Source of the DNA: an uncultured Candidatus Saccharibacteria bacterium
GTDB lineage: Bacteria > Patescibacteriota > Minisyncoccia > Phycocordibacterales > Zambryskibacteraceae
Length of the DNA stretch: 64,000 bases
Reading direction: 5' to 3'
NCBI GenBank assembly: GCA_964618905.1
Contig: CAZUDK010000002.1
Span: 482-64,481 of the forward strand
Each line of letters starts with the position of its first letter. Positions within the stretch are counted from its first letter, which is position 1. The notes below the pieces were generated by a model. It searched no databases, was not told where the DNA came from, and saw nothing but the letters and a program-made list of their open reading frames with translations. Of the stretch, positions 38,701 to 64,000 are shown piece after piece. The position numbers and the translations under genes are program-made.

Positions 38701-41700
38701 ATGAATGAAAAGTCTGACAGAGCCAAGAGGGAAGAGAAGATACTCTCTTTCTGGCAGGAAAAAAATATTTTCAAAAAAACTCTGGAGAAGGATGCTCCTA
38801 AGGGGGAATTTGTATTTTACGAAGGTCCGCCGACCGCAAACGGCCGGCCGGGCATTCACCACCTTGAAGCCCGTGCTTTCAAGGATGCTATCCCGCGATA
38901 CAAGACCATGCGCGGATATCATGTGCGCCGAAAGGCTGGCTGGGACACACATGGCTTGCCGGTAGAGCTTGAGGTTGAGAAACAGCTTGGCATAAGCTCA
39001 AAAAAACAAATTGAAGAGTATGGCATAGCCAAGTTCAATGAGGAGTGCAAGAAAAATGTCTGGAAGTATGTGGACGAATGGATAGACTTTACTAAGAGGA
39101 TAGGTTACTGGGTGGACTTTGACGATGCATACATTACTTACAAAAATCCGTACATAGAATCTGTCTGGAATGTGATCGCTCGTGCGGATGAAAGAGGTCT
39201 TCTATACAAGGATTATAAGGTGGTTCCGTGGTGTCCAAGGTGCGGTACTGCTCTTTCTTCACACGAGCTGGCGCAAGGATATGCAGATGTTAAAGATTTG
39301 TCTGTGTATGCAAAATTTAAAATTGTCGGATTCGATAACGCCTATTTCCTAGCATGGACTACTACACCATGGACTCTGCCGGGCAATGTCGCTCTGGCAG
39401 TCGGTGCAGACATCACATACGTTGAAGCTAAGGTTGGGGAAGATATCTTTGTCTTAGCTAAAGACAGGCTTTCAGTACTCGAAGAGTCATATGAGATAAT
39501 CGCTGAGCACAAGGGTTCGGAGATGGTCGGCATGGAGTACGAGCCTCTGTATCCTTTCCTTAAAGAAAATTATAAAGGCGAAGGCTTGGAGAAAGCATAT
39601 AAAGTTTACACAGCAGATTTTGTGAACACAGAAGATGGTACAGGCATTGTTCATACGGCTGTGATGTACGGCCAAGATGACTTTGCTCTTGGTACGAAAA
39701 TTGGCTTGCCAAAGTACCATTTAGTAGATGAATCCGGGCATTTTCTGCCAGAAGCAGGCTTCCTTGCAGGCAAGTTTGTAAAAGATGAAGAAACTGCCGT
39801 CGAGATCATTAAAGACTTGGCTCATAGAGGACTCTTCTTTAAGAAAGAGAAATATGAGCACTCGTATCCTCACTGTTGGAGGTGTAAGACGCCTCTTATC
39901 TACTATGCCCGAGATTCCTGGTATATCAGGATGTCTGAGCTCCGCGACAAGCTGGTAAGCGAAAACGAGAAAATAAATTGGGAGCCGAATTATATAAAAG
40001 AAGGCCGCTTCGGCGAGTGGCTTCGAGAGGTTAAAGATTGGGCGCTATCCCGTGAGCGCTACTGGGGCACGCCTTTGCCAGTATGGGAGTCCGAGACCAG
40101 TAAGAAAATCGTTGCCGGTTCCATAGAGACTCTTAAAAAGTATACAAAGAGATCTGACAACAAGTATTTTATGATGCGGCACGCTGAGGCCATGAGCAAC
40201 GCCAAGAATGTGCTCGATCCTCAAGGCGATCCGAACAATCATCTTACAGATAAGGGCAGAGCAGAGGCAGTCAGGACTTCAGAAGAACTGAAAGGCAAAG
40301 AAATAGAATTGATACTGACTTCTCCATTTATTCGCACTAAAGAGACAGCAGAGATAGTAAGGAAGGAACTAGGTTTGCCGAAAGAGAGTGTTGTGGTGGA
40401 TGATCGCTTGCACGAAGCCAATGAAAAAGACTTTAAGCTGGTGCGCAAGCGCCTGGGCGAATTCATTTACTGGCTAGACAAAAAATATTTGGGCAGAAAT
40501 ATTCTTATAGTGTCGCACGGAAATCCTCTCTGGGTTTTGGAGAGAATTTCAGACTGGAAAGACAGCGACAATTTCGAGGGGGATAAGATGCTTGCCACTG
40601 CTGAAGTTCGAGAGCTGAATTTTGCTCCCATGCCGCACAATGAAGATTATGAGCTTGATCTTCATAAGCCTTACATAGATGAAGTAGTGCTTGAGAAAGA
40701 CGGCGAAGAGTACAGGCGAACCAAGGAAGTCATGGATGTCTGGCTCGACTCAGGTTCAATGCCTTTCGCTCAGGACCATTATCCTTTCTCAGGCAAACTA
40801 ATGTATCCAGCAGACTTCATATCTGAAGCTATCGACCAGACACGCGGCTGGTTTTACACTCTGCATGCCGTTGGAATGATTATGGAGAGAGGTCATGCAT
40901 ACAACAATGTTATTTGCCTCGGCCACATACTTGATGCAGAAGGCAAGAAGATGTCTAAGTCTATCGGCAATGTGGTAAATCCGTGGGAGGCCATGGACAA
41001 ATACGGAGTGGATGTACTTCGCATGTGGATGTATTCGGTTAATCAGCCCGGAGAATCCAAGAACTTTGATGAACGCACTGTCGATGAGCTGAGCAAGCGA
41101 GTCTTTAATCTCTTAGACAACGTGTATGCGTTTTATGAAATGTACAAATTGCCGAATGATTCAAGCGAAGGAGATGGAGAAAAAGTTCATATTCTTGACA
41201 GGTGGATATTGGCTCGACTCAGCGAGTTGGTAGATTTCTCTTCTGAGATGCTGGATCAATATAAATTGCTTGAGCCAACGCGCGCCATGCGAGAGTTTAT
41301 TGATGATCTTTCTACGTGGTACTTGCGCCGCTCGAGAGATAGATTAAAAGAAGGGGATGCTGGCGCTAAGGAGACATTGCATCAAGTCCTTATTACTCTG
41401 TCTAAAATTTTAGCTCCTTTCGCTCCGTTTACGGCGGAAGAGTTGTATCGGAATCTTCGTGAGGAGGATGAACCAGAGAGTGTTCATCTTTGTGCCTGGC
41501 CTGAAGTGAAGCGTTCGCTCTTTTCTATGTTCAGAAAGGATGATTCTTCTAAAATTATTGAAGATATGAAGGAGGTGAGGAGGATTACAACCCTTGCCCT
41601 CAGTGAAAGGCAGAATGCGGGTATAAAAGTGCGTCAGCCGCTCGCTAAACTCGAAATTAAAAATTGGAAGCTTGGCAAAGAATATGAGGAAATCATCAAG

Positions 41701-41955
41701 GATGAGGTAAACGTCAAAGAAGTTTTAGAGAATCCTCAACTTGATACAGAGGTAAGACTCGATACCAGTATCACCCCCGAGCTTGAAGAAGAAGGAAAAA
41801 TGCGCGAAGTAATAAGGCGTATTCAGGATCTGCGCAAAGAAAAGAATCTGAATCCGGGCGAGACAATGGAGTATGATCTGCCGGAAGAAGAGAGAGAACT
41901 TTTTGCAAAATACAGAGAAGAAATAAAGAAAGCTACAAATATAGAATTAAAGTGA
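38701..41955 (+). CDS. ileS: Isoleucine--tRNA ligase with an inserted histidine-phosphatase (PGAM-like) domain
   Basis: 1084 aa; editing-domain TTTPWTLPGN, WCPRCGT, KMSKS, DVWLDSGS; inserted block YFMMRHAE...LTDKGRAEA...ILTSPFIRTKETAEIV...IVSHGN at about aa 490-620. Confidence 0.85.
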   Translation: MNEKSDRAKREEKILSFWQEKNIFKKTLEKDAPKGEFVFYEGPPTANGRPGIHHLEARAFKDAIPRYKTMRGYHVRRKAGWDTHGLPVELEVEKQLGISSKKQIEEYGIAKFNEECKKNVWKYVDEWIDFTKRIGYWVDFDDAYITYKNPYIESVWNVIARADERGLLYKDYKVVPWCPRCGTALSSHELAQGYADVKDLSVYAKFKIVGFDNAYFLAWTTTPWTLPGNVALAVGADITYVEAKVGEDIFVLAKDRLSVLEESYEIIAEHKGSEMVGMEYEPLYPFLKENYKGEGLEKAYKVYTADFVNTEDGTGIVHTAVMYGQDDFALGTKIGLPKYHLVDESGHFLPEAGFLAGKFVKDEETAVEIIKDLAHRGLFFKKEKYEHSYPHCWRCKTPLIYYARDSWYIRMSELRDKLVSENEKINWEPNYIKEGRFGEWLREVKDWALSRERYWGTPLPVWESETSKKIVAGSIETLKKYTKRSDNKYFMMRHAEAMSNAKNVLDPQGDPNNHLTDKGRAEAVRTSEELKGKEIELILTSPFIRTKETAEIVRKELGLPKESVVVDDRLHEANEKDFKLVRKRLGEFIYWLDKKYLGRNILIVSHGNPLWVLERISDWKDSDNFEGDKMLATAEVRELNFAPMPHNEDYELDLHKPYIDEVVLEKDGEEYRRTKEVMDVWLDSGSMPFAQDHYPFSGKLMYPADFISEAIDQTRGWFYTLHAVGMIMERGHAYNNVICLGHILDAEGKKMSKSIGNVVNPWEAMDKYGVDVLRMWMYSVNQPGESKNFDERTVDELSKRVFNLLDNVYAFYEMYKLPNDSSEGDGEKVHILDRWILARLSELVDFSSEMLDQYKLLEPTRAMREFIDDLSTWYLRRSRDRLKEGDAGAKETLHQVLITLSKILAPFAPFTAEELYRNLREEDEPESVHLCAWPEVKRSLFSMFRKDDSSKIIEDMKEVRRITTLALSERQNAGIKVRQPLAKLEIKNWKLGKEYEEIIKDEVNVKEVLENPQLDTEVRLDTSITPELEEEGKMREVIRRIQDLRKEKNLNPGETMEYDLPEEERELFAKYREEIKKATNIELK
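40160..40565 (+). other. In-frame histidine-phosphatase (phosphoglycerate-mutase/SixA-like) domain inside ileS
   Basis: RHAE (RHG), LTDKG..QA-type, SHG motifs in order; continuous reading frame. Confidence 0.7.
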
Positions 41956-42564: not shown

Positions 42565-44019
42565 ATGAACGGTGAAGAAAAGAGCAGTGTAGAAAAATTA
42601 AAGGAGAAGCTTTATTCTCGCACGAGATACAAGAAGCCGACCGATCAGCGTTCAAATATTGAACAGCCTGAAGACAGGCCTCAAGTAGCAGAAAAGTGGG
42701 ATACGCCGGAACTTGATGAGATGCTTCAGCATGACAGGCGCCTGCCTGAACCTTATCCAATCATGAAAAAAATTTTTGTATTTGCTCTATTGTTCTTCAT
42801 AGGAACTTTAGCTATAACAGCCTTTATCTTTCTGGGCGGTTCAAACTTTATCTCTTCCAAGAATGTGGATATAAGCGTATCCGGGCCAGCATCTATCAGC
42901 GCAGGAGATGTGCTGGAGCTCGGCATTACGATATCGAACAAAAATAATGCCGATCTGCAGGTAGCAAATTTGTCTATTCAGTATCCTCAAGGCAGTCATG
43001 AGGCCGATAATCCAGAACATGCCATTACTTATGTAAGGGAAGAGCTTGGAGCTATAGGTTCCGGAGATGAGTTGAATAAAATCGAGAGAGTTATCCTCTT
43101 CGGCGAAGAAGGTGAGGTCAAGCAGATTAAAATATCAGTAGAGTATAGAATAAGCGGCTCGAACGCTACTTTCTATAAAGATAAGATATACGAAATAACC
43201 ATTGGCGAACCTCCGTTAACCATGATTATTGATCAGCCTGACTCAGTGAATTCCGGAGACGCTTTTAATACCAATGTTACAGTTTCTTCTGCTTCAACCG
43301 AAGTGCTTAGGAACGTGGTTGTGAAGGCTGATTATCCTCCTGGCTATTCTCTGATATCTTCGCAGCCGCAACCCCTGACCGGCGAAAATTTCTGGTCTCT
43401 TGGAGACATGCCGCCGGGCAGTGAAAAGACTTTGACTCTCAAAGGCCACTTGCTCGGAGAAAATCAGGAGAAAAGAACTTTTCACTTCACTGTCGGTGTA
43501 GGAGATCCGGGCCTAAGCGGCATCATACTTGGTGCAGACCTTGTTTCTTTATCCGATACGGTCAGCATAGCAAGGCCGTCCGTCAGTTTGTCTTTGGCGC
43601 TGGATGGCGATGAGAGTTTTGAACACAATTTAAAGGCAGGTGATTTTGTTTCTGCGGATATTCGTGTACGTAACAATCTTTCAGACAAAATAGTCGGACC
43701 GAAGCTTGTAGTGCATCTTTCGGGAACAGCACTTGATGAAAATTCTGTTTCTTCATCAGGCGGTGTATATGATAGACAAAACAATACTATTACTTGGAAT
43801 CTTGTGAATTTGTTTGGACAGCCGGAGATTCTGCCCGGTGCTGACGGAGAAGTTAATCTCAGATTCAGGTCGCTTGAAGACGCCGGTGAGCCGGCAGGAG
43901 AAATTAATATAGAAGTTTCCTTCAGCGGTCGGTCCGTGGGTGAAATTTCAAGGGAGATCGGCTCTGAACTGGAAAGACTCATAAAAGTCTCAGCCGAAAC
44001 AGGTTTCCAGCCTGAGTAA
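42565..44019 (+). CDS. Membrane-anchored surface protein with repeated β-sandwich (CARDB/DUF11-like) domains
   Basis: Cytoplasmic N-terminus, one TM (FVFALLFFIGTLAITAFIFLGG), then repeated Ig-like segments. Confidence 0.45.
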   Translation: MNGEEKSSVEKLKEKLYSRTRYKKPTDQRSNIEQPEDRPQVAEKWDTPELDEMLQHDRRLPEPYPIMKKIFVFALLFFIGTLAITAFIFLGGSNFISSKNVDISVSGPASISAGDVLELGITISNKNNADLQVANLSIQYPQGSHEADNPEHAITYVREELGAIGSGDELNKIERVILFGEEGEVKQIKISVEYRISGSNATFYKDKIYEITIGEPPLTMIIDQPDSVNSGDAFNTNVTVSSASTEVLRNVVVKADYPPGYSLISSQPQPLTGENFWSLGDMPPGSEKTLTLKGHLLGENQEKRTFHFTVGVGDPGLSGIILGADLVSLSDTVSIARPSVSLSLALDGDESFEHNLKAGDFVSADIRVRNNLSDKIVGPKLVVHLSGTALDENSVSSSGGVYDRQNNTITWNLVNLFGQPEILPGADGEVNLRFRSLEDAGEPAGEINIEVSFSGRSVGEISREIGSELERLIKVSAETGFQPE

Positions 44020-53232: not shown

Positions 53233-53580
53233 TTAGTTGACCATCACTTGCACGGATTTCTCAGCTTCTCGGCCGTATCTGTCTCGTGTTTTAACTGTTA
53301 ATATGCTGGTGCCAGGGGATATAGTCAGCTCTTCGCTCCAGAAACCATTTTTGTCTGTGAATATCTGTCTGCCGTTGAGAGTTATCCAAGCGGCATTTTT
53401 AGCTATACCTTCGATGTTTACCAATGATGATACGGAAGAACCGTTTTCTGGAGTTAAGATTTTCAACTGTGGTCCAAGTACTAAGAATCGGGCTTGGAAG
53501 CCAGCGTAAGCGGCGAATACTATAAATAATATTACGAATGCTGCATGCCTTATAGAAATGTTTTTTATTCTATTCATCAT
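53233..53580 (-). CDS. Hypothetical signal-anchored small protein (Ig-like soluble domain)
   Basis: 115 aa; one N-terminal TM; overlaps the ftsK start by 4 nt. Confidence 0.4.
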
Positions 53581-55760
53581 AAATCTGCTTCGTTGTTAAA
53601 TTCCTCGCTACCAACACCTTCTGGTTTTATGAGAACATCTCTCGGCTTGGCGCCTTCTCCCGGCCCTATAACACCTCTCTCTTCCAGTATATCCATTAAT
53701 CTGGCGGCTCGTGCATATCCTACCCTCAGTTTCCTTTGGAGGAATGATGTTGATGCTTTTCCGGCTTCAATCACTGTTTGTCTTGCATCCTCATAAAGAT
53801 CATCTTCGTCCTGACCGTCTTCAAATGAAGAGGAGAATATAGCATTTGGCTGGCCAGTATCTCCCGACAAATTGATTTCATCCATCAGTTCGTCCGCATA
53901 GTTATCCTTGAGATATTTTACTACAGATTTTACTTCTCCTTCAGAAATATAAGCAGATTGGATGCGTGTAGGTTTAGACATTTCGCCGTCGAGGCAAAGC
54001 ATATCTCCGGCACCTAGAAGTTTCTCGGCACCGGCTGAATCGAGGATGGTGCGAGAGTCTATCTGTGATGAGACTTGCAGAGCTATGCGGGCAGGGACAT
54101 TTGCTTTGATCAGACCGGTGATGACATTTACAGAAGGTCTTTGGGTAGAAAGGATCAGATGGATACCAACTGCGCGGCTCATCTGCGCCAGCCGAACTAT
54201 GGCTGCTTCAAGCTCCCTTGGGTATGCCTGCATCAGGTCGGCTAGCTCGTCTATTATAACCACAATGTATGGCATCGGTTCAGGGCCTTCTTTGTCATCC
54301 TCAGATTTATCTTTAAGAGAGGGGAGGAATACGTTCTTATGATAAGAGTTTATGTCTCGAACAGCTTCTTTTTCCAAGACTCCATATCGTCTGTCCATTT
54401 CCTTGGCCACCCATTTGAGTGAAAGGATAGCCTTTTTAGCATCGGTAATAACCGGAGTTAAGAGGTGAGGGATCTGGTTATACAGCGTCAATTCCACTCT
54501 CTTAGGGTCTATCATGATGAACTTCAGGTTTTCCGGAGGATTTCTGAATAGAAGGGAATTGATAATGGCATGTATAGTTACAGATTTACCTGATCCGGTA
54601 GCTCCTGCTATGAGAAGGTGAGGCATCTTTGCCAAATTTGCAAAATGCGACTTGCCTGAAATATCACGGCCAAGAGAGACGAGTAGGGGCTTTTCAGACT
54701 GGGAGTATTCATCTTCAGATAGGAGACTGCCTAATCCTATGGTTGCTTTCTGAGTATTTGGAACTTCTATACCAACCAGAGATTTGCCTGGAATTGGCGC
54801 CTCTATGCGCACAGGGTGGGCAGCTAGGGCAAGCTCCAAGTTGGTCTGAAGTCCGAGGATTTTAGATAGCTTCACTCCTTCGGCCGGCTTGAGGGCGTAT
54901 CTGGTTACAGAAGGGCCGATGGAGATTTCATCCATCTCTACCACGATACCAAAGTTTAGTAAGGTTCGTTTTATAAGGTTTGCATTAGCCTTGATATCTC
55001 CAACACCCGGCTTACCCTTGTCTTTATCCAGAAGCGACAAAGGAGGAGGACTCCATTTCTTGCCGCTTTTGCGTCCAAGAAATGGAGTGAATCCTTCAGA
55101 CTCTTTCTTGCTCTTGGCATTGCTGGTGAAAGTTTTGACCTTGGCTTCCTTACTCTCCTCTTCTGCTTCTTCAGGCAGATTGTCTATAGCTCGGCTTACA
55201 GCTATGGATTCTTCTTCATCAAGATCATCAGCAACCTCTTTCTCTCCGAAGAACCTGTCGATAAGTGCACTGAAGCTGTCTTTGAGCGAGGTGTCAAAGA
55301 TAATAAGCAAAGATACGAGAACAAGGGCGATTAAAATGATTGAACTTGCATATACATCAAACAAAGACATCATTGGGTCTGAAATCAGAGCACCTGCTAC
55401 TCCGCCTTGGTTATTGAACCAGAGATTGGTTAATCCAAGTGAAGAAATGAAGAAAAGCAAAGAGCCAAAAACTTGTGGTATGGCAAAACTTCTTTCGCGG
55501 GCTTGAAAGAAAGCAATAGAGAGTATCAGAAGAGCTATAGCTAAGAGGTAGTATCCGATGCCGAACAATAGAGACAAGAATCCGTACACGCTCTCCCCTG
55601 CTCTTCCTGCTATTCCGAATGCTCCCAAGAGAAGGAAGATAGCCAAGACAGTAGTGAGGATGCCGAATATAGCATTAAGAGTCTCCTCAGAAACATGTTC
55701 TAAGAAATTTGATTTTATTGTTTCGGAATTCTTGGATTTCTTTTTACCTTTCTTCGCCAT
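53577..55760 (-). CDS. ftsK: DNA translocase FtsK/SpoIIIE
   Basis: N-terminal TM segments, Walker A AGATGSGKS, C-terminal gamma winged helix. Confidence 0.9.
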   Translation of the reverse strand: MAKKGKKKSKNSETIKSNFLEHVSEETLNAIFGILTTVLAIFLLLGAFGIAGRAGESVYGFLSLLFGIGYYLLAIALLILSIAFFQARERSFAIPQVFGSLLFFISSLGLTNLWFNNQGGVAGALISDPMMSLFDVYASSIILIALVLVSLLIIFDTSLKDSFSALIDRFFGEKEVADDLDEEESIAVSRAIDNLPEEAEEESKEAKVKTFTSNAKSKKESEGFTPFLGRKSGKKWSPPPLSLLDKDKGKPGVGDIKANANLIKRTLLNFGIVVEMDEISIGPSVTRYALKPAEGVKLSKILGLQTNLELALAAHPVRIEAPIPGKSLVGIEVPNTQKATIGLGSLLSEDEYSQSEKPLLVSLGRDISGKSHFANLAKMPHLLIAGATGSGKSVTIHAIINSLLFRNPPENLKFIMIDPKRVELTLYNQIPHLLTPVITDAKKAILSLKWVAKEMDRRYGVLEKEAVRDINSYHKNVFLPSLKDKSEDDKEGPEPMPYIVVIIDELADLMQAYPRELEAAIVRLAQMSRAVGIHLILSTQRPSVNVITGLIKANVPARIALQVSSQIDSRTILDSAGAEKLLGAGDMLCLDGEMSKPTRIQSAYISEGEVKSVVKYLKDNYADELMDEINLSGDTGQPNAIFSSSFEDGQDEDDLYEDARQTVIEAGKASTSFLQRKLRVGYARAARLMDILEERGVIGPGEGAKPRDVLIKPEGVGSEEFNNEADL

Positions 55761-55950: not shown

Positions 55951-56069
55951 AAAGGGTTGCAAATCTTGTCCATTAAGATGATAATGGACTTACTTGCAAT
56001 AAGAGACAAAATGTGCTCAAATAAAGGACAAGTAAAGAGACAATAAAGGACTCTTAAAAGACAATAAAA

Positions 56070-56867
56070 ATGTCCAATATAAGCCACAGATCCCAAAGAC
56101 TCGCTTCTGCCGTGTATTTGCTGACGAACTTTTTTGGTGACCAAGAGCCTTTAAAGTGGAAGCTTCGTTCTCTCGCTTCAGAACTTGTCTCTTATTCAAA
56201 TTCTATTAAAGACAATTATTCCGCAATCACCGATTGCAAGCTGAAAGCAGCTTCTGTCACTGAAGAGATAAAAAGTTTTCTAAATGTCTCTAAGACGGCA
56301 GGTCTTGTATCTGAAACAAATCATTCACTGATAATTCCTGAGCTGAATAAATACATTGAATTAGTTGCTGTACCTGAGGGTATTTCGGATGTTCTCAATA
56401 TTGGAGAGGAAACTCATCCAGAAGAAAAGTCTAATCTTAACCTGACTGAAAAAGAAAGCTTAAAAATAAAGGACAGAATTTCTCAATCTGCAGATCATGT
56501 AGAGGAAAAAAGGCAGTATCTGCCTGAAGTTTCTGAACACACTCAGAGTGAAAGGGTATCTTTAGAAGGTAATTACAAACCTGGATCAAGTCGCTTTATA
56601 AGCAAAAACAACGAAAAGGCTAGCTTGGATTCAAACAAAAACGCTCAACTCAAAGACTTCGGCGCAGTGTCCGTTAAAAGAAATAGCCGTCAGAGCGCTA
56701 TAGTAAGCCTTCTTAAGCGCAAGAAAGAAATAATGATAAAGGACGTCTCCCCTCTTATAAGTAATTGCAGCGAGAAGACTATCCAGCGCGAACTTCTGGC
56801 TATGGTTAAGGCCGGCATTCTTGTTAAACATGGAGAAAAGCGCTGGAGTAGGTACTCTTTGGCTTAA
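56070..56867 (+). CDS. Hypothetical protein with C-terminal winged-helix DNA-binding domain (putative regulator)
   Basis: C-terminus SRQSAIVSLLKRKKEIMIKDVSPLISNCSEKTIQRELLAMVKAGILVKHGEKRWSRYSL is wHTH-like. Confidence 0.45.
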   Translation: MSNISHRSQRLASAVYLLTNFFGDQEPLKWKLRSLASELVSYSNSIKDNYSAITDCKLKAASVTEEIKSFLNVSKTAGLVSETNHSLIIPELNKYIELVAVPEGISDVLNIGEETHPEEKSNLNLTEKESLKIKDRISQSADHVEEKRQYLPEVSEHTQSERVSLEGNYKPGSSRFISKNNEKASLDSNKNAQLKDFGAVSVKRNSRQSAIVSLLKRKKEIMIKDVSPLISNCSEKTIQRELLAMVKAGILVKHGEKRWSRYSLA

Positions 56868-57261
56868 GCGTGCCTATAGAGTATCAACATAGATTCTTCT
56901 TGCTTAAATGGCTTAAATAGATTACTATTGATGAGCAGATAGCCCTGCTAGGCTGCCTCATTTGAGGGTAAGTCATTGCATAATGACCACAGGCTCTAAC
57001 ATGGTTATCCACAAGTAATTTAACGTTTATTTCATACTCATCCTATAATGGATGAGTGCGAATTGATTATTATTGGGCTTACTTGCACACCTATTAAACT
57101 GACGCGCATTAGCGCAGGCCTTAGGCCAACGGTTTGATAGGTGTGCAGGCTTGCCGGCAAAGGCTTATCCGTTGTCGGCAATTAATACCCGCTTTGCAAC
57201 CTCTACGAATTATTAGAAATCATTGAGGAAGCAACAGCGCATTAAAAAAATAGAATTACAA
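56868..57261 (+). promoter_or_regulatory. Long structured 5' leader / candidate cis-regulatory RNA upstream of the surface-protein gene
   Basis: Hairpin actcatcc-TATAAT-ggatgagt; 11-bp long-range helix tgcacacctat/ataggtgtgca enclosing gcgc/gcgc and ggcc/ggcc hairpins; gccggc palindrome. Confidence 0.4.
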
Positions 57262-59172
57262 ATGATTAGAACAAAAATCGCAACGATCGGCCTCAGCATG
57301 GCACTCGTTCTTGGCGTTGCTGTTACACCAGCATCCGCTCAGAGCATTGCAGAGCTTCAGGCTCAGATCAATGCGCTTATGGCACAGCTTGCCGCACTGC
57401 AGGGAGGAACCACAGTTTCAACTGGAGTTACCTTTACTCAGGATTTGACCATCGGCAGCACTGGTGCAGAAGTAACTGCTCTTCAGCAGATGCTTGTTTC
57501 TCAGGGTTACCTTGTTATGCCGCAGGGCGTAGCATTTGGTTACTTCGGTTCTCTTACTCAGGCAGCTGTGGCTAAGTGGCAGGCAGCAAACGGAGTTTCT
57601 CCTGCAGCTGGCTACTGGGGTCCTGTTTCTAGGGCTCGCGCAGCAGCTCTTGGTGTTACCGGCGGTACAACAACTGGCGGTACAGTTACCGGCGGTACAA
57701 CAACTGGCGGTACTATCAGCACTCCTGGTGTAGAGGGTACTCTTTCTGCAGTTCTCTCATCTGAGGGTTCTGGAGCAGAGCTTAGCGAAGGTGAAAACAA
57801 GGAGGTTGTCATGGGCATTGAGCTCGAGGCAGACCAGTCTGACATCCGCGTTGAAAGAATTCAGGTAAACCTTGATACTACTGAGGATGAAGACTTCTAC
57901 AGAGACTTCGCAGACAAGATCTACATTATGAGCGGAGACACCGTTCTCGCTTCTCGCGACATTGATGACGATACCGTAGTAGAGGATTCAAGTGGAAACC
58001 TATCCATTACCCTCTCTGGTATGAACTTCGTTGTTGCTGAGGGTGAAGAAGAGGTTATCACTATTGCTCTTGACGCTCTGTCGAACATCGACTCAGCAGA
58101 TGAGGGTAAGACATTGTCTCTTACAATCCCAGTTAACGGTATCCGAGGTGTTGACGGAGCAGGTATCAACGAATACGCTCCTGACACTGCTATCACTCAG
58201 TCCTTTGACACTGAGGGTGTAACAGCAGGTGATCTTGACCTTTCTGAAGGTGACACTAATCCTGATGTAAACTCAGTTGTCTTCATAGACGAAGATGAGG
58301 AAACAGAAGGAGTTCTGATGCTCGCTTTCGATCTTGAGGCAAATGATCAGGATGTAACTGTTGATGACATTCCAGTTGGATTCACATCTGCTGGTGATGA
58401 AGTTGACGGTGCAGCAAACCGCATCATCCTTAAGAGAGATGGTAAGACCATTGACAGCATTAGCGTTCCTGCTTCTGCAGGCATGTTCTACCTAGCAACC
58501 TTCGATAACCTCGATGAGGATATTGATGAGGGTGATACAGCAGAATTCGAGGTTTATGTTGACCTCAACGATGCTGATCTCACAACATTTGCTTCTGGTA
58601 CAACCATGTACGCTACTACAACAGCTAGCGACTCTGGTTGGGATGTCGAGGATTCAAACGGCGACGATGTAACACCGGATGGTGGTACAGTTACTGGCGG
58701 AACTATGACCTTCCGCACAGGTGGACTCTCAGTTGAGTCTAGAAGCACCAGTGCACAGTCATTCCCTCAGGAGACTGTAGCTAACAGCTACGCTACCTAC
58801 ACTATCTCCTTTGACGTAACAGCATTCGACGACGATGCATACATCTACAACGGTGCAGCATCATCTACTGCAGCAAGCACTGCAAGCCAGGGTGTTGGTT
58901 ATGACATCGAAGGTGGATGGACAGGTGGTACAGAATCCCCTGTACTCAGCTCTACAGCTGATACAAGCGGCAGCTACTTCGTAGTTGAAGAGGGCCAGAC
59001 AGAGACATTCACTCTCACTGTAACCCTTAACGCAACTACAACTGGTACTTACGCAGTTGAACTCACTGACGTTGCTTCTGCAACATCAGCAACTGAAACA
59101 GGCAGCGTAAGCACTGTAGTTGACCAGGACGATCAGGCATTCCAGACTGACTTCGTCTACATCCCTTCCTAA
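57262..59172 (+). CDS. Secreted surface protein: signal peptide, coiled coil, peptidoglycan-binding domain, Gly/Thr linker, acidic Ca-binding-like β-rich C-terminus
   Basis: The track start at 57223 is TTG; ATG at 57262 gives MIRTKIATIGLSMALVLGVAVTPASA. PG_binding_1-like block at about aa 80-140; D-rich DxDxD segments. Confidence 0.6.
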   Translation: MIRTKIATIGLSMALVLGVAVTPASAQSIAELQAQINALMAQLAALQGGTTVSTGVTFTQDLTIGSTGAEVTALQQMLVSQGYLVMPQGVAFGYFGSLTQAAVAKWQAANGVSPAAGYWGPVSRARAAALGVTGGTTTGGTVTGGTTTGGTISTPGVEGTLSAVLSSEGSGAELSEGENKEVVMGIELEADQSDIRVERIQVNLDTTEDEDFYRDFADKIYIMSGDTVLASRDIDDDTVVEDSSGNLSITLSGMNFVVAEGEEEVITIALDALSNIDSADEGKTLSLTIPVNGIRGVDGAGINEYAPDTAITQSFDTEGVTAGDLDLSEGDTNPDVNSVVFIDEDEETEGVLMLAFDLEANDQDVTVDDIPVGFTSAGDEVDGAANRIILKRDGKTIDSISVPASAGMFYLATFDNLDEDIDEGDTAEFEVYVDLNDADLTTFASGTTMYATTTASDSGWDVEDSNGDDVTPDGGTVTGGTMTFRTGGLSVESRSTSAQSFPQETVANSYATYTISFDVTAFDDDAYIYNGAASSTAASTASQGVGYDIEGGWTGGTESPVLSSTADTSGSYFVVEEGQTETFTLTVTLNATTTGTYAVELTDVASATSATETGSVSTVVDQDDQAFQTDFVYIPS

Positions 59173-59211
59173 TCTAGGATAGGATCTCGATCAGAGTAAT
59201 ATCTGATTGAC

Positions 59212-59248
59212 AACAAAAAACCGCCTTCGGGTGGTTTTTTGTTGTCTG
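59212..59248 (+). terminator. Rho-independent terminator (aaaaaaccgcc-ttcg-ggtggtttttt)
   Basis: Classic hairpin plus T7. Confidence 0.85.
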
Positions 59249-59409
59249 AATGATGAGAAGGATGATTTGAGCTTATTCACATGATATGAACACGTTATAC
59301 ACATTATGTCTACTTGACATGAAATGTAGCGGGTCTAAGGTTGAGCTATTACATAGTGCCTGTTTTCAGCGTTCCCTAGCGGAAATCGCCCATTAATCCA
59401 TAAAAATCC

Positions 59410-62400
59410 ATGAAAAAATCAATTATCGGCTCAGCAGTAATTGCCCTGTTCCTGCTCGCAGGCCAAGTTCATGCGGCAAATGATAGTGTGGCTAGTCTAA
59501 AGATAGACACTGCCCCTACTGCTGGAATAGAAGCTTCTGTAACAGCCGGAGAATCTCTATCCCTTACTGTAATATCATTAGATAGCAATGATGTTGCCAC
59601 TACTACAGAGGGCACTCTTTCTGTAAGTCTTAGTGATGATAATAGTGGAGGAATCTTTACTACCGGGCATGCAACTACTGGTGCTTGTGATTCTGATATT
59701 TGGAACAACGATACTGATGGTATCGGAACAGGAACTCAAAGAGGTTTCTGCTACTCCAACACAACTACTGGTACCTACACTATAACTGCAACAGCAGGTG
59801 AACTCAGCACTACATTTGAAGTAACCGTTAATGCAGCTCCGCAAGTAACCATAGTAAGCAGTGAACATGCTCCATACAGCACAATTCAAGAGGCTATATA
59901 TGACGCTGTCGCAGGAGACACTATTTTGGTACATGAAGCTACTTACAATGTATCTTCCGCTATAAATGTTGATAAAGCTGTAACTATAAAATCAGCCGAA
60001 GGAGAATCTCCTGTAATCATCAGCACAGTAGACGGTTATCAAGGAGTCTTTCAGTTGGATGCAGACGGAGCGGTGCTAGATGGATTGGAAATCCACACTG
60101 CCTCAAGTCTTACAAATCCTGTTGCAGTTCTAGTTAGGGCAGATAATGTTATCGTCCGCAATCTGGTTATTGTTCAAGAGGCAGACAGCTTTAATGCAGC
60201 TCTACAGGTAGTAGATGCAAGGTCTGGTGTGCAAATACTCAATAACAATGTCACAGGCGGTGCAATAGGTTTAGGCAAGGCAACCAACTCTACTGTTACC
60301 GGCAACTCTGTTAGTGATGTTAAGACAGAAGGTATCTTCAGTGCTTTTGGTTCAGGACAGGTTCTTACTCTCTCAGATAATGATATAAGCAACTATGGTT
60401 CAGGTATGACCGCTATAAAGTTTGTCGATGAGCCTGCTTCGATAAATGCTATTACTGACAGTCAAGCAGCCAAGGCTACTGAACTTATCGAATCAAACAA
60501 TGTTAGTGATGTAGAAATTGCAGGTAATGATTATGGCAGCATACAAATAGCTGATGGTCTTTACTACTCAACACTTCAGGATGCAGTAAATGCAACTAAT
60601 CCTATAGGGGGTGATGTTATAGAGTTGAACAAGGATGTTACCATCTCAGAAGAGGTGATTATTAATAAGCCTCTAACAATAAATGGAAATGATCACACAT
60701 TGTTTGCTCAAATCGATAATTCTGCAAATGACAATTCTAACAATGCGGGACTTGGAATTGTAGGGGTTACGGGTGGTGATGTAACAATCAATGACCTTAC
60801 AATTGATGGCACAGGAAGTACGGAAATACACGACATTAATATATTTGATGCCGGTGTTGTAACTCTTAATGGAGTAACTGTAAAGAACGCTACTAAGGCG
60901 GGTATAACTATAAACGGTTCTGATGTGACTGTGAATAATATCACAACTAAAGATAATGCATGGGGCGGCATCAATATTGACCTTGCTGCGGATGTGGTTA
61001 ATCCAGCAACAGCTCTTACTGTGACTGGTACAAGCATTCATGATGAAACTGGTCCTGATATATGGCGTGATGACAATACGAAAGCTGTTACATTTAGTGA
61101 CACAGAGAATCAGTATTCAAGCAGTTCTTATACCCATGACACAGATATAGAAGGTACAGTCTGGGGCATAAAATCAGTAACAGTTAATAATGAGAATGAA
61201 TTGACTGACGCACTATCAGATCCACTTATTGAAACAATCATGTTTGGGTCAGACATTACAATGAGCACTCAGCTTAATATCACACGTTCAGTAACAATTA
61301 ACGGTGCAGGACACACTCTCAGCACTACTGCAGATAACGGATCAGTAATTGAGATCAAGGCGAATGATGTTGTGATTAAAAACCTCATAGAAGATGCAGA
61401 TGGTACTACTGGAAATCGTGGAATCAACATATATAAGGTGACAGGAATATTGTTGGACAACGTAACTGCTGAGAATAATGCTAAGAACGGAATAGTAGTT
61501 AATGGCTCAACTGTAACTGTAAACAACATATCAACTGCTAATAACGGTTGGGAGGGAATAGATGTTGATATGGGAGGACTCGTAACCACACTCGCTAGTC
61601 TTACAGTGAATGGTACAAGCGTGCACAACGAAGCCAAAGCTGCTATCCGCATTGATGATGCTTCAAAGGTACCAACTCCTGTTGTATTAGATACTAATAA
61701 CCAGTACACAGCTTCAACTACCGCAACACTTACTGATTACTTCTTGAATACAAAGAACATTAAAACATCTTCTGATACAACGGAAACGAGCACGGTAGGT
61801 GATATTAAAGTAACTGTAGAGATTCCTGCTGGCATGATAATAAAAGGTAATACATCATGGGATGGAACAATTGAACCCCCAACTGCAACAACAGCAACAG
61901 TGACCTTAGCAGGATTCGACACTGAAGTTACATCTGCGATTGCAATAGGCTCAAGTGATTCAGATTTGACCTTTGATAAGGCGGTCAGATTAACCTTTGA
62001 AGGTCAGGCAGGCAAAAGGGCGGGTTGGTACAATCACGCTGGTAATTTTGAGGAGATAATTGATACTTGCTCATCTGACTCTCAGACTGTAGGTGATGCA
62101 TTAACAGATGGCGGTAACTGCAAGATTGACGTAGGTTCTGACTTGGTGGTTTGGACAAGACACTTCACAACCTTTGTTACTTACACACAGACTTCTGCTC
62201 AGGCGCCAGCATCTTCCGGTGGAGGAGGCGGCGGAACAGTATTCTGCTCAGACACCAGAACAAGTTTCTGCCAGTCTGCTGAAGAAGTAGAAGGAGAGGT
62301 CTTGGGTGCCTTCACTGAAGCTGAAAGGCAAGCCCAGATTGCAGATATTCGCAATCAGCTTATCTCTCTGATCGGTCAGCTCATAAATATGCTGCAAGCT

Positions 62401-62433
62401 GAACTTGAAGCAGCTCAGGCCCAGCAGAGTTAA
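59410..62433 (+). CDS. Large secreted right-handed β-helix (pectate-lyase-fold-like) repeat protein, 1007 aa
   Basis: Signal peptide MKKSIIGSAVIALFLLAGQVHA; repeated NxxGxxV β-helix rungs; internal ~200-aa duplication; C-terminal GGGGGG + CxxxxxxxC + coiled coil. Confidence 0.6.
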   Translation: MKKSIIGSAVIALFLLAGQVHAANDSVASLKIDTAPTAGIEASVTAGESLSLTVISLDSNDVATTTEGTLSVSLSDDNSGGIFTTGHATTGACDSDIWNNDTDGIGTGTQRGFCYSNTTTGTYTITATAGELSTTFEVTVNAAPQVTIVSSEHAPYSTIQEAIYDAVAGDTILVHEATYNVSSAINVDKAVTIKSAEGESPVIISTVDGYQGVFQLDADGAVLDGLEIHTASSLTNPVAVLVRADNVIVRNLVIVQEADSFNAALQVVDARSGVQILNNNVTGGAIGLGKATNSTVTGNSVSDVKTEGIFSAFGSGQVLTLSDNDISNYGSGMTAIKFVDEPASINAITDSQAAKATELIESNNVSDVEIAGNDYGSIQIADGLYYSTLQDAVNATNPIGGDVIELNKDVTISEEVIINKPLTINGNDHTLFAQIDNSANDNSNNAGLGIVGVTGGDVTINDLTIDGTGSTEIHDINIFDAGVVTLNGVTVKNATKAGITINGSDVTVNNITTKDNAWGGINIDLAADVVNPATALTVTGTSIHDETGPDIWRDDNTKAVTFSDTENQYSSSSYTHDTDIEGTVWGIKSVTVNNENELTDALSDPLIETIMFGSDITMSTQLNITRSVTINGAGHTLSTTADNGSVIEIKANDVVIKNLIEDADGTTGNRGINIYKVTGILLDNVTAENNAKNGIVVNGSTVTVNNISTANNGWEGIDVDMGGLVTTLASLTVNGTSVHNEAKAAIRIDDASKVPTPVVLDTNNQYTASTTATLTDYFLNTKNIKTSSDTTETSTVGDIKVTVEIPAGMIIKGNTSWDGTIEPPTATTATVTLAGFDTEVTSAIAIGSSDSDLTFDKAVRLTFEGQAGKRAGWYNHAGNFEEIIDTCSSDSQTVGDALTDGGNCKIDVGSDLVVWTRHFTTFVTYTQTSAQAPASSGGGGGGTVFCSDTRTSFCQSAEEVEGEVLGAFTEAERQAQIADIRNQLISLIGQLINMLQAELEAAQAQQS

Positions 62434-62465
62434 TTCAGAAATCTTCTTAGAAACTTAGAAAAGTC

Positions 62466-62504
62466 AAAACCGTCCCCTGCAGATATCTGTGGGGGACGGT
62501 TTTC
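62466..62504 (+). terminator. Rho-independent terminator (aaaaccgtcccc-...-gggggacggtttt)
   Basis: Stem of about 11 bp plus T-run. Confidence 0.8.
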
Positions 62505-62527
62505 GGTGTATGGGGTAGAATATTATC

Positions 62528-63496
62528 ATGAGACGTAAAATTTCTAATCTCTTTATTCCGAGCAAGCGCAATAAAGGTATCCCTTCTCTCCTGTCTTCTA
62601 AATCTTTCTGGGCAGCGCTTTCTTTGATTGCGTTTATAGAAGTATATGTGCTGGTTGCTCCGGTATTTTTGCCAATATTTGGCATAAATACAGCTTCTGT
62701 TCTGCCTAAGGTCATAGCTACTTTGACCAATGAAGCTCGTGTGGAAAATGGTCTTAGCAAGCTGAATATAAATGAAACTCTCACATATGCCGCTCAAGCG
62801 AAAGCTGATGACATGGCCGAAAAAGGTTACTTCGCTCATCAGTCTCCGGACGGCTCGCAGCCTTGGGACTGGATATCCAGAGAAGGATACAAGTACAGCT
62901 ATGCCGGAGAAAACTTGGCTGTGAACTTCTCTGACTCTGAAAAGGTGGTAGAGGCGTGGATAGATTCACCCACACACAAACTCAATTTAATGGGACCAAG
63001 ATATACGGAAGTCGGTATTGCTGTTTCGAGAGGAATGTACAAAGGCAGGGAGGCGGATTTCGTGGTGCAGATGTTTGCTACCCCTGCTCAAATTTCCGAG
63101 CCTTCGATTTCTTCTGGAATTGAAGATAGAGAAGAAAAGAATCATTCAGAGATTGCTAATTTAGATAACAATTCAAACTCAGGTTCAAACCAAAAGGTGC
63201 TTGCCGCTCAAACTCAAACATCAGCATTGCCGGCAAGCGCAGAATCAAGAATAGTATCCGCGCCTCGAACTTACTCCAAGTATGCATATCTCATGGTAGC
63301 TATCTTTTTCTTGGTGATACTTGCCAGCGGAGCACTTCTTTCAAAGTATAGGCACAGCAAGGCGGCTACCATAAGAGCTTTGCTGATAATACTTACAATA
63401 CTGGGAATACTATTTTTCAACAGTCGGATAGCTTTCAGCCCTATCGAATTACCCGTGGACAATCAGAATGCGGCAGTAGTGCTTTCTGCCATATAA
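62528..63496 (+). CDS. Membrane-anchored CAP/SCP/PR-1 (YkwD-like) domain protein
   Basis: N-terminal TM, CAP domain (GYFAHQSPDG...GENLA...W..SP.H..N), C-terminal TM. Confidence 0.7.
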   Translation: MRRKISNLFIPSKRNKGIPSLLSSKSFWAALSLIAFIEVYVLVAPVFLPIFGINTASVLPKVIATLTNEARVENGLSKLNINETLTYAAQAKADDMAEKGYFAHQSPDGSQPWDWISREGYKYSYAGENLAVNFSDSEKVVEAWIDSPTHKLNLMGPRYTEVGIAVSRGMYKGREADFVVQMFATPAQISEPSISSGIEDREEKNHSEIANLDNNSNSGSNQKVLAAQTQTSALPASAESRIVSAPRTYSKYAYLMVAIFFLVILASGALLSKYRHSKAATIRALLIILTILGILFFNSRIAFSPIELPVDNQNAAVVLSAI

Positions 63497-63585: not shown

Positions 63586-64000
63586 ATGCTCGTTCGTATC
63601 TGTAGAAAAAGTCTCTTACTTGCTCTCTTCTCTCTTGCTCTGGCAAGGCCTGCATACTCGGCACTTATAAATATAAATACTGCCCCACCAGCTGAACTTG
63701 AAACTCTCGAAGGCATCGGCCCTTCATACGCAGATAGGATAGTAGATTATCGAGAGACTGTGGGACCGTTTGATTCCAAGATTGAAATCATGAATGTCAG
63801 CGGAATCGGCGAAGCCACCTATTTAAAAATCAAAGACTTCATAACCGTTGGTTCCTCTGACTCTTCGGCTGCTGCGAAAGAAATAGAAGATTCAGAAATT
63901 TCAAAAGCAGAGCATTCAGATTCGCAAGAAGAAGATCCGGATTTTTATTCTTTTAATGATTTAAGCATAGGACGGGATAGGATAGGTTCGACCGGCAGCC
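63586..64000 (+). CDS. comEA: ComEA-like competence protein (helix-hairpin-helix DNA-binding), 3'-truncated by the window end
   Basis: Signal peptide, then ININTAPPAELETLEGIGPSYADRIVDYRETVGPFDSKIEIMNVSGIGEATYLKIKDFI; no stop before position 64000. Confidence 0.7.
   Translation, partial: MLVRICRKSLLLALFSLALARPAYSALININTAPPAELETLEGIGPSYADRIVDYRETVGPFDSKIEIMNVSGIGEATYLKIKDFITVGSSDSSAAAKEIEDSEISKAEHSDSQEEDPDFYSFNDLSIGRDRIGSTGS

Follow-up and report, generated by a model that had tools for sequence, protein, structure and literature searches.

A recurrent C-terminal VLGA-helix tail and the composite surface-protein locus that carries it in a Paceibacteria genome

The gene 3 protein of a four-gene locus from a Patescibacteria (Paceibacteria) cell ends in a short tail, made up of the motif GEVLGAFT and an amphipathic helix, and this tail recurs at the extreme C-terminus of mutually unrelated secreted proteins. 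The locus lies in a stretch of 64,000 nucleotides of contig CAZUDK010000002.1 (the window, whose first letter is position 1) and consists of four consecutive plus-strand genes, here called genes 1 to 4, whose open reading frames (ORFs) were found where a preliminary description of the DNA had placed them. The tail is apparently an undescribed and widespread module. It is tentatively proposed to be the mark of an undescribed Paceibacteria retention system, in which a diverse surface proteome would be captured by an adjacent CAP protein with three transmembrane helices (gene 4), by hubs of the gene 2 type that join a helix to PG_binding_1, or by both, the hub gene being under a novel leader RNA. 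Taken whole, this reading is somewhat doubtful, and its parts differ in strength.

The bacteria belonging to the Candidate Phyla Radiation (CPR), or Patescibacteria, represent a large share of bacterial diversity and are mostly attached to hosts, and the molecular make-up of their envelopes is almost unexplored. According to a review of 2026, attachment is due to type IV pili, and the S-layers visible under the microscope are left without a molecular identity (PMC13293708). With a recognisable tail, the surface proteins that Paceibacteria display could be predicted from sequence.

The VLGA-helix tail and its passengers

The tail occupies residues 954-1006 of the gene 3 protein (nucleotides 62269-62427) and comprises GEVLGAFT (residues 962-969; nucleotides 62293-62316) and a 37-residue helix (970-1006), which AlphaFold2 (AF2) predicts as a single helix over the same residues. 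In general, the module runs from a linker rich in glycine and serine through the motif G[EQ]VLGAFT into an amphipathic helix some 35 residues long, with the consensus G[EQ]VLGAFT..E[RK]QAQIA.I[KR].QL.SLI.QLI.LLQAQLAAA..G. Its apolar residues occupy heptad positions a, b, d, and e for about five heptads, a pattern suited to a bundle of three or more helices. The tail is covered by no Pfam or NCBIfam model, and a description of the module is absent from the literature searched.

An exhaustive comparison of a profile built from the tails of gene 3 and protein P0003 with 1.84 billion representative proteins matched 42 proteins. On rescoring with a profile of 36 tails, 37 of 39 matches lie at most 12 residues from the C-terminus, 35 have a V[LF]G motif, and 26 have an N-terminal signal peptide, several of the others being fragments. 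The passengers are mutually unrelated, and include subtilase S8, ice-binding-like, InlB B-repeat, HYR/Ig, β-helix, and YDG/MBG domains, as well as very small proteins. A metagenome scan with a narrow tail profile found six independent loci, mostly in 0.1-µm-filtered Hainich groundwater, and the tail ends the ORF in all six. A further large-database search with the tail profile gave 375 candidates and 3 short matches, and is uninformative.

At the anchoring end of related proteins, the helix changes places with other anchors. Three relatives of gene 3 were compared after the β-sandwich and linker: P0003 has a helix like that of gene 3, P0002 (50% identity) has GEVLGA and PG_binding_1 after the same β-sandwich and G/S linker, and P0004 has LysM and a transmembrane helix. 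The 'gene B' orthologs of a two-gene cassette downstream of gene 2, whose passengers are 38-61% identical, have the helix alone in loci L019, L020, and L053, whereas in L016, L029, and L032 the same end consists of a short helix resembling that of gene 2 and of PG_binding_1. The two elements also occur fused. In P0154, P0147, P0164, and L088 the helix follows PG_binding_1, and in P0134 a tail-type helix is situated between the secreted passenger and PG_binding_1; as it lies between two extracellular parts, it is not a transmembrane segment. From the swaps in the anchor slot and the fusions to PG_binding_1, the helix emerges as a modular part of Paceibacteria surface proteins, located at their anchoring end.

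Gene 2 has a comparable helix at its N-terminus, SIAELQAQINALMAQLAALQ, of 20 residues (28-47; nucleotides 57343-57402) and three heptads, with I or L at 100% of the a and d positions; the AF2 model has a single helix at 29-46. With the PG_binding_1 domain behind it, this appears to be the same combination moved to the N-terminus. The tail profile weakly matches about 30 gene 2 homologs (E = 0.006-0.9), always in the same register, and hhalign aligns the tail with the gene 2 helix over 19 columns with a probability of 42% and E = 2.6e-4. The resemblance of the gene 3 and gene 2 coils, to which the preliminary description drew attention, is hence real and also short. That the coils, which it calls complementary, form a private pair is not supported, as both appear to belong to a helix module shared across the lineage.

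Outside gene 3, the motif G[EQ]VLGA[FS]T is met ahead of tail helices and PG_binding_1 domains and in the linkers of many secreted proteins of Paceibacteria (P0002, P0154, P0147, L088, L026, L037, L083, and the linkers of the gene 4 family). A processing site and a structural cap are candidate roles for it.

Several known signals were compared with the tail. When set against an LPXTG/sortase signal, the gene 3 tail contains no LPXTG and no transmembrane segment, and it ends in ...AAQAQQS without basic residues. It has no match to Dockerin_1 (PF00404). A transmembrane segment was rejected on the Q, E, R, and N content of the tail and on the topology of P0134. C-terminal signals of the type I or type IX secretion systems (T1SS/T9SS) were rejected on general grounds, as Sec signals are present at the client N-termini, in cells that are monoderm, and the tail forms a helix rather than a β-sandwich. 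Locus L086 was considered as an arrangement of ftsK, gene 1, and a tail gene, and was rejected because it shows no homology to ftsK or gene 1.

The passenger in the window is the product of gene 3 (59410-62433, plus strand), a secreted protein of 1007 residues characterised by Pfam matches, an AF2 model, and the tail profile. It consists of a signal peptide, an N-terminal β domain of low confidence (about 25-145), right-handed β-helix modules at 147-300, 378-565, and 589-768, a conserved C-terminal β-sandwich at 790-929, and a disordered G-rich linker before the tail. The predicted β-helix is supported by Beta_helix (PF13229; 39.1 bits, cut-off 25.9) and Pectate_lyase_5 (PF20585; 40.2 bits, cut-off 24.3). 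The last two modules are an internal duplication: alignment of the protein in parts places residues 402-579 on 608-776, about 180 residues each, with 38% identity and E = 5e-30, which agrees with the repeats noticed earlier. The mean predicted local distance difference test (pLDDT) value of the AF2 model is 68, and the β-helix modules are mostly at 75-95. This model and its fold matches show that the β-helix region is not a low-complexity artefact. The Foldseek matches are PL6 alginate lyases, a P22-type tailspike, and phage depolymerases (E = 5e-6, identity 8-13%, TM-scores 0.1-0.26). To judge by the fold, gene 3 probably binds or cuts glycans; an adhesin and an enzyme are not distinguished, because the likeness is at the level of the fold only, with 8-13% identity.

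The GGGGGG run, the cysteine pair in CSDTRTSFC, and the terminal helix reported for gene 3 are all read directly from its translation. The cysteines form a CX7C loop after the poly-Gly linker (residues 947-956, FCSDTRTSFC), and the pattern C[ST]xxxT[ST]FC also occurs in P0127 and P0152. The loop may be closed by a disulfide.

Two gene pairs, their products and their control signals

Gene order was compared by tblastn of the window proteins against 80 loci centred on gene 2 homologs. The minus-strand ftsK gene has the same position and orientation in 73 loci, and a gene 1 homolog lies upstream of the gene 2 homolog in 74, the order ftsK (-), gene 1 (+), gene 2 (+) being kept in 73-74 of the 80. 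In the window, ftsK (53577-55760, minus strand; Pfam FtsK_SpoIIIE, FtsK_gamma, FtsK_alpha, and FtsK_4TM) is divergent from gene 1 and marks the left edge, conserved across these loci, of the gene 1-gene 2 pair.

The preliminary description had taken genes 2 and 3 as dedicated partners that assemble head-to-tail, the C-terminus of gene 3 on the N-terminus of gene 2, and that form one surface-display or S-layer apparatus with genes 1 and 4. Such an arrangement is unlikely. It draws on the adjacency of genes 2 and 3 in the window, yet tblastn finds a gene 3 homolog in none of the 80 gene 2 loci; no more than three relatives of gene 3 were detectable in a set of 5.8 billion clustered proteins, and none of these adjoins a gene 2-like gene. 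The likeness of the two helices speaks for it, as does the gene 2 helix, which is near-invariant and right beside the peptidoglycan anchor, but the tail is found on dozens of unrelated proteins. In independent loci gene 3 pairs with gene 4 and not with gene 2, and strong terminators separate genes 2, 3, and 4. A last point in its favour is the enrichment of anchor-bearing genes just downstream of gene 2. Genes for C-terminally anchored secreted proteins near gene 2 number 14 downstream, all within 1.2 kb, and 4 upstream (binomial p = 0.0009, for loci that are phylogenetically non-independent).

A gene 4 homolog is found by tblastn in one of the 80 loci, and in six of them gene 2 is followed, at once or after a short distance, by comEA. 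Since gene 3 is absent from the gene 2 loci and its relatives lie elsewhere, genes 3 and 4 look like a cassette between gene 2 and comEA. The locus as a whole looks like a composite of a conserved Paceibacteria core (genes 1 and 2) and a lineage-specific inserted cassette (genes 3 and 4). The single dedicated four-gene apparatus is thereby replaced by two pairs, with genes 1 and 2 together in 73-74 of 80 loci, gene 3 in 0 of 80, and gene 3 linked to gene 4.

The region downstream of gene 2 is variable in general, with IS200-like genes in about 16 loci, and the site appears to behave as a variable hotspot. One IS200-like (Y1_Tnp) gene of about 225 codons is located at L005:12035-12757, and about 16 other loci have one downstream of gene 2; the identity between genomes is 40-50%. 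This gene may be a domesticated transposase. Just downstream of another gene 2 homolog (L083:12326-13570), an ORF encodes a protein in which Dockerin_1-type repeats occur together with an acidic G/S linker, a tail-type helix in internal position, and a transmembrane helix at the C-terminus.

Gene 4 (62528-63496, plus strand) encodes a membrane protein of 322 residues. Its predicted CAP domain is confirmed by PF00188 at 72.7 bits (cut-off 21.1, E = 6e-20), and hydropathy gives one N-terminal and two C-terminal transmembrane-like segments, in line with the helices expected at both ends. The order is a conserved cytoplasmic N-terminal motif, a transmembrane helix (about 25-60), the extracellular CAP domain (66-183), a linker, and transmembrane helices at about 248-275 and 277-306. 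His104, Glu128, and His150 of the CAP domain are invariant in six homologs of the family alignment. The linker contains a VLAA motif, and the linkers of the family have VL[GA]. Gene 4 scores below the NCBIfam cut-offs of YkwD (TIGR02909; 108.8 against 171) and DalA (NF052539; 62.2 against 200), and thus appears related to both and a member of neither. DalA, a bacterial CAP-type protein and the nearest of the curated relatives, is reported to bind peptidoglycan non-covalently (PMC10470522).

Six gene 4-family genes are present in about 1.43 Mb, and all are at most three genes downstream, on the same strand, of a gene for an anchored secreted protein. Five of them follow a tail-bearing gene (the window, L002, L085, L088, and L089). 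Three of the six metagenome tail loci likewise have a gene 4 homolog just downstream. Of the proteins with the β-sandwich of gene 3, the three tail-bearing ones are each followed by a CAP gene, whereas the two with PG_binding_1 or with LysM and a transmembrane helix at their ends are not. As a candidate partner of the tail, the neighbouring CAP protein is no weaker than gene 2. Two small ORFs (about 76-96 residues) occur after the tail gene at L085:351-881 and L087:3345-3812; in L085 they lie between the tail and CAP genes.

Gene 2 (57262-59172, plus strand) encodes a secreted protein of 636 residues, as first described. Its start at ATG 57262 is supported by the conserved leader, which ends there in 21 genomes; an in-frame upstream TTG at 57223 would extend the protein to 649 residues. 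The protein has a signal peptide (1-26), the helix, a PG_binding_1 domain (about 59-130), a disordered T/G linker, and four Ig-like β-sandwiches (about 159-636). PG_binding_1 matches PF01471 at 36.3 bits (cut-off 23, E = 6e-9) and is modelled by AF2 as a three-helix bundle (69-80, 97-109, and 121-129) with a pLDDT of about 80-90, the mean for the whole protein being 80. The repeat in the linker, (TGGTTTGGTV)x2, is read from the translation. The acidic region, which makes up the C-terminal three quarters of the protein, had been regarded as Ca-binding-like. It has no Pfam or NCBIfam match at E <= 0.1 to Ca-binding families (RTX, cadherin-like, DxDxDG), and the AF2 model and fold matches assign it to the four Ig-like β-sandwiches instead. 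These match PrgB Ig domains and antigen I/II, which are stalks of Gram-positive adhesins, and more weakly the S-layer protein SbsB; all have an identity to gene 2 of only about 10%.

Gene 2 has at least 649 homologs, of about 640 residues, in Parcubacteria or Patescibacteria, with the annotation 'peptidoglycan-binding domain-containing protein'. Members of the family were found in no fewer than 471 species-representative genomes, which belong to Zambryski-, Adler-, Kaiser-, Wolfe-, and Campbellbacteria and to further Paceibacteria. Mean column identity is highest in the helix (0.81), followed by PG_binding_1 (0.76) and the Ig domains (0.44-0.58). The architecture and the expression signals are suggestive of a major wall-bound or S-layer protein, for which gene 2 is a candidate. 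The S-layer-like character ascribed to the locus is retained at the level of architecture only, in that gene 2 has an N-terminal wall anchor and an array of Ig-like domains.

The gene 2 promoter region (57005-57049, plus strand) was delimited in an alignment of 20 genomes. The promoter comprises a -35 hexamer TTAACG (57020-25) and a -10 hexamer TATAAT (57044-49), which match the consensus at 10 of 12 positions. About 10 nucleotides upstream of the -35 hexamer is the box TTATCCACA (57005-57013), which is invariant in the 20 genomes; within the alignment, TATCC.CA and the TAT of the -10 hexamer are invariant. The box shares TTATCC with the loop of the leader hairpin, and may be a regulator-binding site.

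The structured 5' leader of gene 2 (57148-57264, plus strand) was recognised by covariation. It contains a hairpin, P1 (about 57153-57179), with the conserved loop GGCUUAUCCGUU and a co-varying stem, and a long-range helix, P2/P2a, which surrounds UUAGAAAU..GAGGAAG; the element stops at the gene 2 ATG. RNAalifold finds compensatory changes in 11 of 18 pairs. Of the cells, 92.3% are paired, against 81.4% in shuffles (0/500) and 32-50% in slid controls. A covariance model (R1) matches each of 21 loci once, in every case at the ATG of gene 2, and gives no further match in 1.4 Mb. Besides the window, the element lies just upstream of the gene 2 homolog in L004-L020, L041, L052, L053, L055, L058, and L082. 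Rfam 15 contains no match to the leader, either at the gathering threshold or with E <= 1. In gene 2 loci that are more distant (L045, L059, and L076), the conserved leader is a different one. The gene 2 leader therefore appears to be a new RNA motif supported by covariation.

An intrinsic terminator follows gene 2 (59209-59246, plus strand), with a 17-bp stem, a UUCG loop, and a T-run (ΔG -28.4 kcal/mol, z -7.2). A second one follows gene 3 (62466-62503, plus strand) and also has a 17-bp stem (ΔG -29.9 kcal/mol, z -5.4). Individual terminators had been proposed for all four genes; on folding, nothing comparable is found after gene 1 (z 0.13) or gene 4 (z 1.5), and the proposal holds for genes 2 and 3 only. 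Both terminators were spotted by eye and by folding, and were missed by an automated promoter and terminator scan, probably as their A/U-extended stems absorb the T-run. The strong promoter, long structured leader, and strong terminator of gene 2 would fit an abundant and regulated envelope protein.

Gene 1 (56070-56867, plus strand) encodes a protein of 265 residues with a predicted DeoR-like winged helix-turn-helix (wHTH) at its C-terminus, at about residues 200-265. In its family, the N-terminal helical domain is conserved, the linker after it is variable, and conservation is strong in the C-terminal segment. The proposed C-terminal winged helix receives divided support: the window protein matches HTH_DeoR (PF08220) at 16.5 bits and E = 0.007, below the Pfam cut-off of 21, whereas 13 of 25 family members match at E <= 0.01, the best with E = 2e-5. 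A profile search of the PDB with gene 1 gave nothing at E < 0.09, the best wHTH match being BlaI (E = 0.15), and the N-terminal helical domain has no recognisable relative in that search.

The promoter and putative operator region of gene 1 (55957-56069, plus strand) consists of promoter-like hexamers and ARRGACAA boxes. The direct repeats noted upstream of gene 1 are present as GACAATAAA at 56039-56047 and 56060-56068, and these two copies, both immediately 5' of gene 1, are the only exact ones in the 64-kb window. They belong to a cluster of ARRGACAA boxes, four of which lie on the same strand at 56002-09, 56024-31, 56036-43, and 56057-64, interleaved with the hexamers; the window has 24 copies of this box against 12.2 expected. 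The layout ATAATGGAC..TTGCAATAAAGGACA..TAnAAT..AAAGGACA..AAAGACA is found upstream of gene 1 homologs in many genomes. Across loci, the gene 1 promoter has three to four AAAG(G)ACA boxes between and after -35/-10-like hexamers. Because the boxes sit in the gene's own conserved promoter, autoregulation is suggested, with the boxes as a candidate operator for the gene 1 wHTH protein.

To the right, gene 4 is followed by comEA (63586-64000, plus strand), which runs off the window and forms the right border of the locus; its HHH_3 match (E = 1e-19) agrees with the earlier assignment. The window also encodes IleRS, ArgRS, MetRS, PolA, RecA, FtsK, a type IV pilus ATPase, and a class A penicillin-binding protein (PBP), and is chromosomal DNA of a Patescibacteria (Paceibacteria) cell. 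The class A PBP indicates that this cell makes peptidoglycan, a setting in which the secreted or envelope nature claimed for the gene products is supported. Two other ORFs of the window also have domain matches. An isoleucyl-tRNA synthetase-like ORF of 1084 residues (38701-41955, plus strand) has a His_Phos_1 match at residues 490-574, within the synthetase. An ORF of 484 residues (42565-44019, plus strand) contains a DUF11 repeat, a domain common in surface proteins; it matches neither the tail nor PG_binding_1, and may be a further envelope protein.

Proposed retention at the envelope and its rivals

The chance is about even that the tail retains proteins non-covalently on the envelope, with the gene 4 CAP protein or helix-PG_binding_1 hubs such as gene 2 as the partner. 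In this scheme, gene 1 would act as a DeoR-like wHTH protein together with the AAAG(G)ACA boxes in its own promoter, and gene 2 would be expressed from its strong promoter through the structured leader. After export by Sec, gene 2 would become a major wall-bound surface protein by means of PG_binding_1. Gene 3 would also be exported by Sec, and its tail helix would then enter a multi-helix bundle or dock on a partner fixed in the envelope. The protein would thereby be held non-covalently at the cell surface, with the β-helix facing outward. The first candidate partner is the co-encoded CAP membrane protein with its three transmembrane helices, for which the gene-neighbourhood evidence is strongest. 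The second is a hub such as gene 2, suggested by sequence resemblance and by the swaps in the anchor slot.

Several observations weigh against this retention scheme. In L031 a gene 4 homolog follows a protein anchored by PG_binding_1 alone, and the small 'gene B' tail proteins have no CAP neighbour, so the link between CAP and tail is not absolute. The VLGA motif is not specific to the helix, as it also precedes PG_binding_1 and occurs in the gene 4 linker. The likeness between the tail and the gene 2 helix could be convergent coiled-coil composition, because it covers only 19 columns rich in Q, A, and L. A tail-bearing gene is close to gene 2 in just 5 of about 65 loci, and the independent tail loci with readable downstream sequence are few, about seven. 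The argument that gene 3 would be retained at the surface rather than released comes from comparative genomics.

The tail may alternatively be a sorting or processing signal, in which G[EQ]VLGA is cleaved or processed by the adjacent CAP protein through its His/Glu/His residues, parallel to LPXTG/sortase and PEP-CTERM/exosortase. The extreme C-terminal position and the conserved short motif upstream of the helix are as expected of such a signal, but the motif is followed by neither a transmembrane helix nor a basic stop-transfer tail; the helix is amphipathic and Q-rich, and its Kyte-Doolittle hydropathy, by a hand estimate, is below the transmembrane threshold. The recurrent polytopic membrane neighbour has conserved residues that are putatively metal-binding or catalytic. 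CAP domains are not known to be transpeptidases or peptidases of the sorting kind. The hhalign alignment places 'GA|FT' of the tail on the signal-peptidase site 'SA|QS' of gene 2, which also favours processing; against it, VLGA precedes folded PG_binding_1 domains and occurs in the gene 4 linker, and the helix is internal, before PG_binding_1, in P0134. On the whole, processing is improbable.

An equally slim prospect is that the helices only homo-oligomerise, for example as trimers of β-helix proteins and of PG_binding_1 modules with a gain in avidity, that helix-only proteins are released, and that the likeness of gene 2 and gene 3 is generic coiled-coil composition. Tailspike-like β-helix proteins, to which gene 3 has fold matches, are typically trimers, yet the tail is also carried by very small passengers and by passengers of monomer type such as Ig domains and subtilase. 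The apolar a/b/d/e pattern suits bundles of three or more helices, and the profile likeness to the gene 2 helix is weak; the exchange of the tail for PG_binding_1 at the same position in orthologs argues the other way, and the specific CAP neighbourhood is left unexplained. A direct lipid anchor, with the tail helix lying in the plane of the outer leaflet of the cytoplasmic membrane or inserted into it, is very improbable. In its favour, CPR envelopes are thin, and the consensus helix has a broad apolar face and a fairly high hydrophobicity (mean Eisenberg H 0.27). Against it, the hydrophobic moment is low (0.11-0.13), the gene 3 helix has a net charge of -3 with Glu, Asn, and Arg throughout, and the same type of helix is flanked on both sides by extracellular domains in P0134 and is found at the N-terminus of the mature, wall-bound gene 2 protein.

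If non-covalent retention by a CAP protein or a hub is correct, the tail-marked proteome would be a source of candidate host-recognition and host-degrading factors. The gene 2 family supplies a concrete candidate for a protein that is major in the wall or S-layer. The pairing of tail and CAP would give bacterial CAP-domain proteins a testable role. These ideas can be tested by peptides, heterologous expression, or metaproteomics, without cultivation of the organism.

Comparison with known systems

Bacterial CAP/SCP proteins: Gene 4 shares the CAP domain with His/Glu/His with YkwD and with DalA of Rhodobacter. It differs from them in falling below both family cut-offs and in being a membrane protein with three transmembrane helices, not a lipoprotein.

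Right-handed β-helix proteins: The glycan-active members of this fold, such as PL6 alginate lyases, P22-type tailspikes, and depolymerases, together with the 'adhesive domain' of Pectate_lyase_5, match the three modules of gene 3. The match is at the fold level only, with TM-scores of 0.1-0.26 and an identity of 8-13%.

S-layer proteins: Like SbsB of Geobacillus and the high- and low-molecular-weight (HMW/LMW) forms of SlpA of C. difficile, gene 2 has an N-terminal anchor and tandem Ig-like domains. Its promoter and terminator are strong and its structured leader is long, as is often the case for abundant envelope proteins. In contrast, its anchor is PG_binding_1 with a helix and not SLH or CWB2, and its identity to the fold matches is only about 10%.

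Sorting systems: Sortase/LPXTG, exosortase/PEP-CTERM, and archaeosortase/PGF-CTERM likewise equip diverse secreted proteins with a conserved short motif and a C-terminal segment, and in some cases a neighbouring gene encodes a dedicated membrane protein. The tail, however, has no transmembrane helix or basic tail, and its neighbour is a CAP protein instead of a sortase or exosortase.

Non-covalent anchors of monoderm bacteria: PG_binding_1, LysM, SLH, and CWB2 are known as wall anchors, also under the name 'choice-of-anchor', and gene 2 has a bona fide PG_binding_1. The relatives of gene 3 with PG_binding_1 or LysM in the same C-terminal slot display the classic pattern of interchangeable anchors. 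Gene 3 itself has a helix instead of a known wall-binding fold, and stands outside the curated families.

Cohesin-dockerin: The closest analogy for the proposed working is the cellulosome, in which many unrelated secreted passengers likewise carry one short C-terminal module and the scaffoldin is anchored by SLH proteins. A wall-bound partner of the tail would, by this analogy, hold its passengers non-covalently. In contrast to dockerin, the tail is a single amphipathic helix without Ca-binding EF-hand repeats, and no cohesin-like receptor has been identified. The principle of non-covalent and interchangeable anchors is thus already known, and what appears to be new here is the anchoring or docking module and the leader RNA motif. 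If the proposal is true, the VLGA-helix tail would be a coiled-coil counterpart, in the Paceibacteria of the CPR, of dockerin-cohesin or of LPXTG-sortase.

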